A stretch of DNA of 19,629 nucleotides, taken from positions 1 through 19,629 of the forward strand of contig JBFMBF010000023.1 of assembly GCA_040755315.1 (NCBI GenBank). The letters are read 5' to 3'. Positions 14,495 through 19,323 of the stretch are shown here, piece by piece. How positions within the stretch are numbered: position 1 is the stretch's first letter; the number at the start of each line of letters is the position of its first letter. The notes under the pieces were generated by a model. It did no database searches. It was given only the letters and a program-made list of their open reading frames with translations, and was not told the DNA's origin. The DNA comes from Candidatus Hadarchaeota archaeon (GTDB taxonomy: Archaea; Hadarchaeota; Hadarchaeia; Hadarchaeales; Hadarchaeaceae). A program made the translations under genes and the position numbers.

Positions 14495-15385
14495 ATGAGG
14501 CCCGCTGGACGAATTGAGGAGGTCTTTTGCCCGAAGTGCAAGCGTTACGTGGGGACGTTTGAGAAATGCCCATATTGCCACGCGAAGATCCCAAAGCGAC
14601 TTTCTTTCCGCCTGCTGAAGTGGGGTGGCCTGGCAATCGCCATCCTGGGGATTCTGTTTCTTTACGTGGACGTGCGCGGCCCCCACATCCTGGTAAAAGC
14701 CCCTTATCAGCTCAGGATCGGCGACCTTTACCTGGACAACAGCGCGACGATGAACATGGCCCAGGTGATAATGACAGGCAAGGCGACTTTTGTGAAATAT
14801 TACGAGGACACGAGGTTTTTAGGGATGTTCATAACCGACCTGGAAAATGAGAACGCAGATGTTTTTATCCGCGCTTACGATGCCACTACCCTGACTCTGC
14901 TCGCGATGGAAAACCAAAGGCTGGCCGAGAACAGCTCGACGCCGAAGTATCCTGCCGTCGGGGACATCGTCACTCTGAGGGGGAACCTGAGGGTCAGGGC
15001 CTCCGGTGAATTTATCGGTGAATTCAGGATGCTGATACTGCAGTACCCCGAAGGGGTGCTTGAGATAAACCGGCCGGCCGCAACCCCCGTCAGCATCAAA
15101 GAGGCGGTAGACAACATGAACAACTTCTCGCTTTACCAGAGATTGCAGGTGGAAGGGAAGGTAATTTCCACTTCAGACCTTGGGTGGGCAAAAGTCGTGA
15201 CACTTTACGACATGGGCTCTGGGGCTGAGCTGGGATTGATGCTGCCAAGCGTCCTGAACTACTTCGGTACCCCCCTCCAAACCAATATTGGGGACTTGAT
15301 TAGAGCCAGGGGCGCCATCCAGTCTTACTATGGAACGCCGCAGCTCTGGGTGGCGTCCTGGGATGATCTGGCGGTGATAGGATGA
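14495..15385 (+). CDS. Zn-ribbon / single TM / two OB-fold-like domains membrane protein
   Basis: CPKC-x9-CPYC, basic patch, TM WGGLAIAILGILFLYV, then OB-like units PAVGDIVTLRGNL and IGDLIRARGAIQSYYGTPQL. Confidence 0.8.
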   Translation: MRPAGRIEEVFCPKCKRYVGTFEKCPYCHAKIPKRLSFRLLKWGGLAIAILGILFLYVDVRGPHILVKAPYQLRIGDLYLDNSATMNMAQVIMTGKATFVKYYEDTRFLGMFITDLENENADVFIRAYDATTLTLLAMENQRLAENSSTPKYPAVGDIVTLRGNLRVRASGEFIGEFRMLILQYPEGVLEINRPAATPVSIKEAVDNMNNFSLYQRLQVEGKVISTSDLGWAKVVTLYDMGSGAELGLMLPSVLNYFGTPLQTNIGDLIRARGAIQSYYGTPQLWVASWDDLAVIG

Positions 15386-16824
15386 CGGAGCACAAGACCT
15401 GTCCTGCCTGCGGGAAACCAACTGGAGGGTATGTCCCTTGCCCGCACTGTGGCGCCGACCCGCGCTTCCGGGTCACGCTGAAGTTTGCGATGTGGCTCTG
15501 CCTTGCGGCGCTTGCGCTTGCGGCGGTCTTCTTTTACATGCACATTGCCACTTCTGAAATATCCCCGACGCCGATATCGAGCATCGACACCTGGATGGAC
15601 TACTCTTACGTGGTGGTCCAGGGAGTTGTCAGTTCCGGGCCGCAGTACGACGACACTTCGATGACATTTACCGTCTACGACGGTAGCGCCTTGGAAGAAA
15701 AAGACGCCACGATAACCGTGGAGGTCTACGACCCGGCATTCCACAATCTTATTGCGGAGAACAGGGTGCCCGCCGTGGGAGACAACATCCGGATATTTGG
15801 GCAGCTCCGTGCGCCCGCCTCCGGTGAAAAGGAGATAAACCCGTCAAATGCAAGTGAGATAACACTCACAAAGGCTCAAGCATCCGCTGCCACAATTTCC
15901 CAGATACTAAACACATTGGGGACCAGCCAGTCGTTGCTTTACAAGAGGCTGACTGTGGCGGGCAGCATAAGAGGCCTCAGGCCTCTGAGCTCCGCGAAGA
16001 TATACACGCTGGAGGACAACGGCAAAGAGGTTGAAGTTTACATCCACAATGGTCTGGGCACTTACATTGAAAAAAGACAGCTTGACTTGAAAGTTCTGGA
16101 CATGGTGAGTATCACGGCGGGACTTTCGCACTACAGCGGGACCCCGCAGTTTTCCATCGCAGACTTCGATGAAATTCAGGTGACCGGCTCCGAGAACCTG
16201 AGCAGAACTGCGCTGGAGAACATTGACAACAGCCTTGTCGACGAATACGTGAAGACCGGCGGGAAAGTGGTTTTCGTTGAACTGGTCGGCACAGGCTCCG
16301 ACCTTGAAATTGCTGAAAGGATCATTTGGCTTGAAAACAGCGCGACTAGAATCTCCGTGAACGAGGACCTTTTCCAAACTTTACCAACGGAAACTAGGAA
16401 CCTGGTCTCAAGGGGAGCGGAGCTTGAGCTGGTGGGCAAGGTGAAGAGGTATGGGTCGGGGCTCAGGATAGAGTGGGTCGGGCCGCAGACGCCGACCGTC
16501 ACTCAGGGCCAATTTGAACCTGCGCCAGTAGACAACTTTGCGAATGTAGCCTCTGTAGCTGCCGACAACCTGGTGACGGTGGCTGGGGCCGTCCAAAGCA
16601 CCAGTTCGATAATAAAGGGCTACCTGCCGGACGACGTGTTCTTAAACATCGGCGACAACTTCGGAAACACCGCGAAAGTGTACCTCCCGAACTTCATGTA
16701 CGAGAGGATGCTCAGCCCGCCAGGCGTCGGCGAAAATGTGAAGGTGGTCGGGAAAGTGATGACCATCTCGGGCTCTGTGGCGATCCAGCCCGGAGTGCTG
16801 GAGGATGTCCAGAAGGTGAGCTGA
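15382..16824 (+). CDS. Zn-ribbon / single TM / about four OB-fold-like domains membrane protein
   Basis: CPAC-x9-CPHC, TM FAMWLCLAALALAAVFFYM, and repeated units ending PAVGDNIRIFGQL, LDMVSITAGLSHYSGTPQF, GAELELVGKVKRY and GVGENVKVVGKV. ATGA overlap with the upstream gene. Confidence 0.8.
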   Translation: MTEHKTCPACGKPTGGYVPCPHCGADPRFRVTLKFAMWLCLAALALAAVFFYMHIATSEISPTPISSIDTWMDYSYVVVQGVVSSGPQYDDTSMTFTVYDGSALEEKDATITVEVYDPAFHNLIAENRVPAVGDNIRIFGQLRAPASGEKEINPSNASEITLTKAQASAATISQILNTLGTSQSLLYKRLTVAGSIRGLRPLSSAKIYTLEDNGKEVEVYIHNGLGTYIEKRQLDLKVLDMVSITAGLSHYSGTPQFSIADFDEIQVTGSENLSRTALENIDNSLVDEYVKTGGKVVFVELVGTGSDLEIAERIIWLENSATRISVNEDLFQTLPTETRNLVSRGAELELVGKVKRYGSGLRIEWVGPQTPTVTQGQFEPAPVDNFANVASVAADNLVTVAGAVQSTSSIIKGYLPDDVFLNIGDNFGNTAKVYLPNFMYERMLSPPGVGENVKVVGKVMTISGSVAIQPGVLEDVQKVS

Positions 16825-18142: not shown

Positions 18143-19323
18143 TGAGAGGATTGACTCACTTTGTGATGGGGATAACGGTCGCGACATTCTTCAGGAGCCT
18201 GATGACTGGTGCCGTCATGCAGGACTCGCTACTGATACTGCTGGGGGGAATCTTCGGGCTTTTGCCGGACACTCTCGACTTCAAGTTCCTGGTCTACTGG
18301 GAAAAACAGGACGCCGTCATAGACCCGGAGCCGCAGGACATGAAGCCGCAGGAGATCGCGGCCAAGTTTGCCGAGGAGATAAACAAGGCCAACGAGCTGA
18401 AGCCGGGCGGGATGAGGCGCATACAGGCCCATACTGTAAAGCTGGGCCCTGACCTCTGGCAGTCGTACAGCATCAATTTCAACAAGGCCCAGCAACAGGT
18501 CGAGGTGAAAATCGGCCCCCATGTGACGATGTCAGGGATTCCTGCGTTCGGCACTGAGCCACCGGCGGACAGGGCCCTTGGAGTAGCAAAGTTCAATCCA
18601 AAGCTGATAGACACTTATGGCCGGCCGACCGAGGTGAAAGGGTTCAGCGGCCCGTCGTTCGGGTTCCTCAAGAGGAAGGACGGGGCGGTGGAGGTGGTTT
18701 TCATCCCGTTCCACAGGCGCTCCGGCCACAGCATGACGATGGGGGTAGTCCTCGCGCTACTCGGGTGGATCTTGACCGGAGTCTGGCAGGTCGGGGCGGC
18801 GATATTCATGGGGTGGACCATGCACATAGTGCTGGACTCCTTCGGGCACCTCGGCAACAACCTGTTCTGGCCCGTGACAAAGCAGAGGACAAGCGGGCTT
18901 TACCTGGTGAGCGCTTCCAACCCATACTGGAACGCGTTCACAATCTACTCGTGCATACTCATCATGCTCTGGAACATGAACCTGTACAACGCGTCGGTCA
19001 GCGCAAGCTACACGATCCCGGCCATAACTTCACTTGGCCTGGGCGCCTACCTGCTGCTGGGCATCTTTGCGCCATGGTCGATCATCGGGGTGGTTTACTA
19101 TTACCACATGCAGAAGACGAAGGGGTTCAAGCCGTTCGAGCTGTTCGCGCCGTCCACCGGCGGAGTAGGTCTGGTCGCGACGGAGGGGACGACCGTCCAG
19201 GAGCCCGAACATTACTACGAGGTCTCTGAAAAGCCGAGGCCGTCCATAATCTGGCGGGCGCTGGGCATCGGCATCCTCATCGCGATATTTGTGGTGCTTT
19301 TCGCCTACGGGCCCACCTGGTGA
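18142..19323 (+). CDS. Membrane-bound metal-dependent hydrolase (YdjM/DUF457-like) with large soluble insertion
   Basis: GLTH, LLPDTLD, HRRSGHS, MHIVLDSF and LFWP metal-ligand motifs. ATG18142 overlaps the tctA stop (TGATG). Confidence 0.85.
   Translation: MRGLTHFVMGITVATFFRSLMTGAVMQDSLLILLGGIFGLLPDTLDFKFLVYWEKQDAVIDPEPQDMKPQEIAAKFAEEINKANELKPGGMRRIQAHTVKLGPDLWQSYSINFNKAQQQVEVKIGPHVTMSGIPAFGTEPPADRALGVAKFNPKLIDTYGRPTEVKGFSGPSFGFLKRKDGAVEVVFIPFHRRSGHSMTMGVVLALLGWILTGVWQVGAAIFMGWTMHIVLDSFGHLGNNLFWPVTKQRTSGLYLVSASNPYWNAFTIYSCILIMLWNMNLYNASVSASYTIPAITSLGLGAYLLLGIFAPWSIIGVVYYYHMQKTKGFKPFELFAPSTGGVGLVATEGTTVQEPEHYYEVSEKPRPSIIWRALGIGILIAIFVVLFAYGPTW

Follow-up and report, generated by a model that had tools for sequence, protein, structure and literature searches.

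The window analyzed here is a stretch of 19,629 nucleotides from Candidatus Hadarchaeota archaeon (GenBank assembly GCA_040755315.1, contig JBFMBF010000023.1), and it carries a cassette of four co-oriented genes that encode two related zinc-ribbon proteins with OB folds, a TctA-like membrane protein and a YdjM-like putative hydrolase. Comparison across genomes identifies the cassette as a real conserved module of three protein kinds, with an OB/TctA/YdjM linkage far beyond chance. The module runs parallel to an already described pairing of an OB protein with a TctA-like protein, and its probable role, on balance, is the import of nucleic acid.

A conserved module of OB, TctA and YdjM proteins

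A scan of the GTDB species genomes returned 475 relatives of the window TctA. The best 80 of the 475 loci were fetched, and genes within 8 kb were counted as linked. These loci come from 8 Hadarchaeota, 1 Thermoplasmatota, 40 Chloroflexota, 14 Verrucomicrobiota/Kiritimatiellia/Lentisphaerae, 4 Muiribacteriota, 1 Spirochaetes, 1 Marinimicrobia and 11 further bacteria. An OB partner is present at 62 of the 80 loci by single-sequence search and at 69 by profile, and each of the 11 genomes lacking a linked OB gene has an OB-profile match at another place, which in 10 cases extends from the N-terminal zinc-ribbon region onward. YdjM is linked at 44 of the 80 loci, and the same subfamily occurs elsewhere in 33 of 35 other genomes searched, which brings YdjM to 77 of the 80 carriers. 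The 36th genome without a linked YdjM (G002) gave no YdjM match; its tctA lies right before the end of the contig. The recurrent linkage expected by the original prediction, a note made from the letters of the window, is borne out by this neighborhood survey.

An even sample of 151 Verrucomicrobiota genomes was used as a control. PF01970 is found in 20 of them (3 classical and 17 others), and the YdjM profile matches exactly those 17 non-classical genomes and none of the 134 others; 3 of the 17 had supplied profile rows, and related genomes in the sample are not independent. Strong YdjM matches are present in 8 of 41 Hadarchaeota genomes, all of them carriers, and OB and YdjM genes also surround TctA at the five second copies examined. 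The window-type TctA has YdjM as a near-obligate companion.

The TctA-like protein scores 127.7 bits against PF01970 (cut-off 28.9) and is a polytopic membrane protein with an EWPK loop insertion at residues ~149-168; its closest relative (96%) is from Candidatus Hadarchaeota. A quick IQ-TREE tree of 69 selected rows, for which the tool warns of long branches, groups the window-type proteins in one clade (SH-aLRT 94) with a sister clade of archaeal proteins, here called ordinary (SH-aLRT 94), and sets three classical TctBC-linked TctA rows on a distant separate branch (SH-aLRT 100). The window TctA is 26-28% identical to ordinary archaeal TctA and 16% identical to one classical row. The window's own genome (G000) has a second TctA at C6:6606-7835, which is of the ordinary type and directly follows a 219-aa single-anchor gene with two OB folds and no zinc ribbon. 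The window OB family is homologous to the OB protein of this ordinary pair (hhalign probability 99.1, E 1.4e-18).

Some TctA match is found in 35 of the 41 Hadarchaeota genomes, and the window type (at least 48% identity) in 9 of the 41 plus a tenth partial case. All 9 also hold an ordinary copy (27-32% identity). An OB gene is adjacent at 19 of 20 ordinary TctA loci from relatives, and none of those has a zinc ribbon or a YdjM neighbor in the flanks examined, which mostly span 1.5 kb. These data show that the window module parallels the ordinary pair and does not replace it. In the window's genome the ordinary pair is followed by a transposase-like ORF, recognized by eye, and then by a membrane-anchored double-PLD gene (C6:6606-11701). 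A further OB and TctA-like pair lies on a Cylindrospermopsis plasmid (NZ_CP060823.1, L116:6198-10376) ahead of a gene with a NERD nuclease domain, and in the quick tree its TctA is a long-branched member of the ordinary archaeal group.

Searches of the window's genome, which is 86.6% complete, found neither TctC nor TctB, and TctC occurs in 2 of 50 carrier genomes searched from among the 72 non-Hadarchaeota carriers. The module needs no TctC, in agreement with the original prediction, which had noted that TctC and TctB are missing from the window. Assignment to a classical TctABC system was rejected on these counts and on the separate branch of the tree. ComEC (PF03772) was likewise not found in the four cassette proteins or in the window's genome, and is present in 42 of the 50 carriers, which are 42 of the 49 bacteria among them, some by partial matches. 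Since the window's genome has the ordinary pair and ComEC is present in 42 of 49 bacterial carriers, the module is not a stand-in for ComEC, and the original prediction is corrected on this point; replacement of ComEC by the module was rejected for bacteria.

Predicted membrane arrangement of the module

OB proteins 1 and 2 are paralogs (27% over 300 columns, E 4e-21, pairwise alignment), and each has a CxxC-x-CxxC motif, a basic stretch and a single hydrophobic segment (residues 35-54). About two and four OB folds had been read from the two sequences; a repeat profile confirms 4 units in OB protein 2 and 1 in OB protein 1, and the second unit of OB protein 1 appears in the pairwise alignment alone. 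OB protein 2 scores over the PF01336 cut-off of 27 (34.8 bits) and OB protein 1 under it (19.8 bits), and 7 of 7 bacterial OB proteins scanned are over. None of the four cassette proteins is above an NCBIfam cut-off. Archaeal RPA leads the PDB matches of the OB profile (E 1e-7), and the top ten consist of RPA and other nucleic-acid-binding OB folds with one exception, YgiW; the class of fold originally proposed is thus supported. An aromatic residue occupies one OB position in 71% of 251 repeats and another position in 74%, and the arrays reach up to 7 tandem repeats among the homologs.

Lysine and arginine residues are more numerous before the transmembrane segment than after it in 61 of 66 OB homologs (means 3.3 vs 1.4), and a single hydrophobic segment is present in 60 of the 66. 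This positive-inside bias predicts that the zinc ribbon is likely inside and the OB arrays outside, which is the orientation first put forward from the window proteins. Glycosylation sequons are not enriched in 15 archaeal ectodomains (23 observed vs 28.3 expected) and so give the surface location no support. The cassette at locus L046 has a separate OB-only gene with a lipoprotein-like start, the signal being recognized by eye. Genome G045 encodes a membrane- or lipid-anchored-looking protein that combines an OB fold of the cassette family with two SpoVG domains (L238:1249-2544).

The YdjM-like protein, a putative membrane metallohydrolase, scores 45.2 bits against PF04307 (cut-off 29). Residues H6, D43, D46, H191, H196, H228 and D232 are invariant in 30 rows, and a soluble β insert of ~140 aa is present. 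The invariant His and Asp residues are on the same side as the N-terminus and the basic loops, and the loops of the opposite side hold 0.3-1.0 Lys and Arg residues. In the model, the metal site likely faces the cytoplasm, behind the transporter. PDB sequence searches found no solved relative of TctA or YdjM; one weak match (E 0.014), to an unrelated insecticidal toxin, was treated as chance. Tandem diverged extra copies of the YdjM subfamily occur in four Chloroflexota genomes (G055, G060, G354 and G357).

Modeling of the cassette proteins as a complex had been proposed at the outset, and the TctA-YdjM pair was run. Contact between the two is predicted with a score of 0.78, compared with 0.00 for the best of 3 controls; the mark for this score is reached by 116 of 157 solved complexes and 2 of 215 mismatched pairs, counts that are rough with custom alignments. 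At least 77% of contacts are shared between runs, and the partner pLDDT is at least 78. The predicted interface is formed by TctA residues 125-172, including the EWPK loop, and by the N-terminus and insert of YdjM. The EWPK loop averages 4 Lys and Arg residues and is missing in 5 of 6 ordinary TctA rows. YdjM is predicted from these models to dock on the inner face of TctA. The original prediction had the hydrolase trim or dephosphorylate the substrate; the hydrolase role is kept, and the predicted topology and complex make action at the inner face after import likelier than trimming outside.

Proposed cargo and purpose

In the proposed mechanism, the four gene products would form one membrane machine. 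Single-stranded nucleic acid captured by the OB arrays outside would pass through the membrane by way of the TctA-like protein, and the YdjM-like hydrolase, docked at the TctA inner face, would cut or dephosphorylate the cargo, with feeding as the most likely purpose. Nucleic acid is proposed as the cargo because of a methanogen gene pair, the RPA-like folds and a few neighboring genes, and nutrition as the purpose because a further candidate uptake route is already available to the carriers and a hydrolase would await the incoming cargo.

The methanogen pair is described in PMC10133366: M. maripaludis MMJJ_13020 (OB fold, one transmembrane segment) and the adjacent MMJJ_13030 (TctA-like, 11 transmembrane segments) are each essential for natural transformation, as is the TctA homolog SAMN04488571_104187 in M. 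thermophilus. A secreted-type lamin-tail and PLD protein is encoded downstream of YdjM in 5 of the 80 loci, and the N-terminal part of such a protein follows an unlinked YdjM at locus L222. In genome G050 (L239:2622-10343) a ComEA-like double HhH gene lies directly upstream of a full cassette and a metallo-beta-lactamase, HhH and OB gene lies two genes further upstream; the ComEA-like HhH gene has no match in the 80 loci.

Several points weigh against this mechanism. OB folds can bind sugars and proteins too, and PLD proteins may be lipid enzymes. The nucleic-acid-related neighbors are few, and some are close kin. The window OB repeats keep the first aromatic position in 1 of 5 scored and the second in 3 of 5, and 62 of 66 homologs have OB ectodomains of net acidic character. 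When the YdjM model was put through two fold searches, neither phospholipase C nor P1 nuclease was matched at E ≤ 0.001 (best Z 6.2), with little coverage of residues outside 256-331. PMC8557891, in which YdjM is aligned to the domains of Zn phospholipase C and S1-P1 nuclease, interprets it as a phospholipase. A DNA transporter function for MMJJ_13030 is the hypothesis of the authors of PMC10133366. The window module was likened to the methanogen pair by that paper's description, which the ordinary pair of the window's genome fits more simply. With these points included, import of nucleic acid in some form, for feeding or as a second transformation route, is still judged fairly probable, and surface capture, import and inner-face hydrolysis, likely for feeding, is the tentative first choice.

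A second route of natural transformation would import DNA intact for recombination, and YdjM would have an accessory part in it, such as local lipid remodeling or gating. This is unlikely, as most carriers already have ComEC (42 of 49 bacteria) or the ordinary pair (9 of 9 Hadarchaeota), and the flanks fetched for ordinary-type TctA loci contain no YdjM of this subfamily. Its merits are that the module has the same two core components as the transformation pair (PMC10133366), that ComEA-like and metallo-beta-lactamase/HhH genes lie upstream of the G050 cassette, and that the window's genome holds two PF00437 pilus-type ATPases and a thermonuclease-family gene.

The cassette might also be an envelope or lipid machine. 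In that case YdjM would be of the phospholipase type, a lipid or glycan would be flipped or exported by TctA, glycans would be the ligands of the OB arrays, and the phenotype seen in methanogens would arise indirectly via pilus or surface assembly. The phospholipase prediction for YdjM (PMC8557891) would suit such a machine, as would the archaeosortase and pilus genes that also came from the methanogen screen (PMC10133366), the acidic OB ectodomains and the downstream PLD-family proteins. A gene of the lysylphosphatidylglycerol-synthase transmembrane family, of which one member was scanned, follows the cassette in 4 Anaerolineae loci, but these four loci are close kin. The OB repeats, however, best match RPA and other nucleic-acid-binding folds, with YgiW as the sole top-ten exception, and the HhH neighbors in G050 and the OB-SpoVG protein of G045 point to nucleic acid. 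An envelope function is judged unlikely.

Transport of a small solute (a carboxylate or nucleotide) by TctA alone, or with the OB proteins as binders, is improbable. PF01970 membership favors it, PMC5898192 proposes carboxylate transport without TctB/TctC for archaeal TctA (arCOG04469), and the TctA model, for which fold searches gave no clear match, weakly resembles secondary transporters (YS1: Z 11.5, rmsd 11.4 Å, 270 aligned). Yet the clade is distant from the three classical TctABC sequences, up to 7 tandem OB repeats suit a polymer over a small acid, and DNA uptake requires the ordinary relatives (PMC10133366). Sensing or defense, with outside nucleic acid on the OB arrays signaling via TctA to activate the YdjM hydrolase inside, is very improbable: the patchy distribution with clean loss and the YdjM domains in polymorphic toxins (PMC8557891) are set against one fixed chromosomal site in Hadarchaeota, a GC content equal to that of the surroundings, and no recurrent defense neighbors among the gene clusters viewed, PADLOC not having been searched.

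If capture, import and inner-face hydrolysis of nucleic acid is correct, the archaeal-type TctA clade would consist of nucleic-acid translocases and not carboxylate carriers, and the module would represent a new polymer-import family and a route for anaerobes to recycle extracellular nucleic acid. The current candidate for the archaeal DNA transporter is the TctA-like protein (PMC10133366). A sister clade of this candidate recurs in bacteria (475 matching stretches in GTDB) with a fixed enzyme partner, and it makes a defined three-part complex available for purification. The most far-reaching version of this reading is doubtful: the module would be a third type of machine for nucleic-acid import, with no relation to ComEC, in which an OB-array/TctA-like translocase and a docked cytoplasmic Zn nuclease would let deep-subsurface archaea and hundreds of poorly cultured bacterial species (Chloroflexota, Verrucomicrobiota/Kiritimatiellia, Muiribacteriota) eat extracellular DNA or RNA.

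The locus and its relation to known systems

Table 1. Features of the cassette, its flanks and its products. Positions are those of the window unless a contig or residues are given.
Feature	Position	Strand	Description	Basis
Putative promoter, TATA-like TTTTTAT	14458..14464	+	31-37 nt 5' of first ATG	Sequence
OB protein 1 gene	14495..15385	+	296 aa	ORF list
OB protein 2 gene	15382..16824	+	480 aa	ORF list
TctA-like gene	16826..18142	+	438 aa	PF01970
YdjM-like gene	18142..19323	+	393 aa from ATG	PF04307
Intron-containing tRNA, likely Trp(CCA)	19357..19512	+		Rfam RF00005, 37.9 bits
OB protein 1	Zn-ribbon Cys 12-28; transmembrane segment ~36-54		Zn ribbon, basic patch, one transmembrane segment, two OB folds predicted outside	
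OB protein 2	Zn-ribbon Cys 7-23; transmembrane segment ~35-53; OB repeats 61-165, 180-270, 274-376, 384-480		Zn ribbon, one transmembrane segment, OB repeats predicted outside	
Ordinary OB+TctA pair	C6:6606-8495		No Zn ribbon, no YdjM	

The four genes are joined by an ATGA overlap (15382-15385), a 1-nt gap (16825) and a TGATG overlap (18142), and both these junctions and the TTTTTAT box were found as first reported. The ORF list begins the YdjM-like frame at GTG 18136, and the length in Table 1 is counted from ATG 18142. AT-rich boxes lie at a comparable distance upstream in 5 homologous loci viewed; the promoter scan of the window was of the bacterial type and was uninformative.

The cassette of Hadarchaeota is located between TFB and the intron-bearing tRNA, which is its fixed downstream border and lies outside the machine. 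This tRNA, missed by ARAGORN, has a long intron with box C/D-like words and an apparent second short insert before the anticodon arm, and its Trp(CCA) identity was read by eye from the anticodon stem. ARAGORN places another tRNA-Trp elsewhere in the genome. Of 30 Hadarchaeota tRNA loci, 8 are preceded by YdjM, while in 5 the distance to TFB is no more than 1.5 kb, the latter being empty sites. In G020 (L195:1294-1398) a cassette remnant beside the tRNA corresponds to the first ~35 codons of OB protein 1 (74% identity), and this deleted remnant indicates loss of the cassette, which is dispensable in Hadarchaeota and has been lost by deletion. A recent mobile island at the tRNA is unsupported, given that the cassette matches its flanks in GC content and lies 5' of the tRNA and that G020 retains a deletion remnant.

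The other genes of the window are of mixed kinds. A NifU/IscU-like scaffold gene (2226-3716, minus strand; PF01592 in two pieces) is split by a low-GC LAGLIDADG insert that is apparently an intein in an unusual host gene. A lipoate-ligase catalytic domain and two radical SAM genes follow at 4997-7960 (plus strand), and the short gene before the ligase domain resembles, by eye, a ligase accessory domain. Two secreted-looking paralogs at 9716-11580 (plus strand) have a C-terminal transmembrane segment and no Pfam family above cut-off; they are possibly surface-layer proteins and are kept upstream of the cassette in 5 Hadarchaeota loci. MinD-type genes are common, and a MinD/ParA gene on the minus strand lies at 11564-14426 together with a geranylgeranyl-reductase-like gene and TFB (152.7 against an NCBIfam cut-off of 384). 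A MinD is also needed for M. maripaludis transformation (PMC10133366).

The module shares features with four known systems. It has a TctA-family membrane protein in common with TctABC (PF01970/PF07331/PF03401), and differs in the missing TctB and TctC and in the long branch that separates it from classical TctA. With ComEC (PF03772 with a DUF4131 OB fold and a beta-lactamase-like nuclease) it shares the logic of an OB fold, a membrane channel and a metallohydrolase, and OB protein 2 has a DUF4131 match of 25 bits that is under the cut-off of 31.6; the membrane protein and hydrolase of the window are nevertheless from other families, and ComEC coexists with the module in most bacterial carriers. 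The His/Asp constellation is shared with YdjM proteins (PF04307), from which the window protein differs in its soluble insert and in belonging to a subfamily tied to the window TctA clade.

The closest likeness is to the MMJJ_13020/13030 pair, which also consists of a single-transmembrane OB gene adjacent to a TctA-like gene, with no TctB, TctC or ComEC found in the window genome. Literature searches, with most subscription papers outside their coverage, found TctA together with transformation only in PMC10133366 and its preprint, and did not find the Zn-ribbon/YdjM or bacterial form. The original prediction had left room for a module absent from the literature; because the MMJJ_13020/13030 pair is published (PMC10133366), the core OB and TctA pairing is already in print. 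The form in the window differs from that pair in its two Zn-ribbon OB paralogs with 2-4 OB repeats, its near-obligate YdjM and its separate, bacteria-wide TctA clade, and this Zn-ribbon, YdjM-linked form is an enlarged variant of the published pairing.

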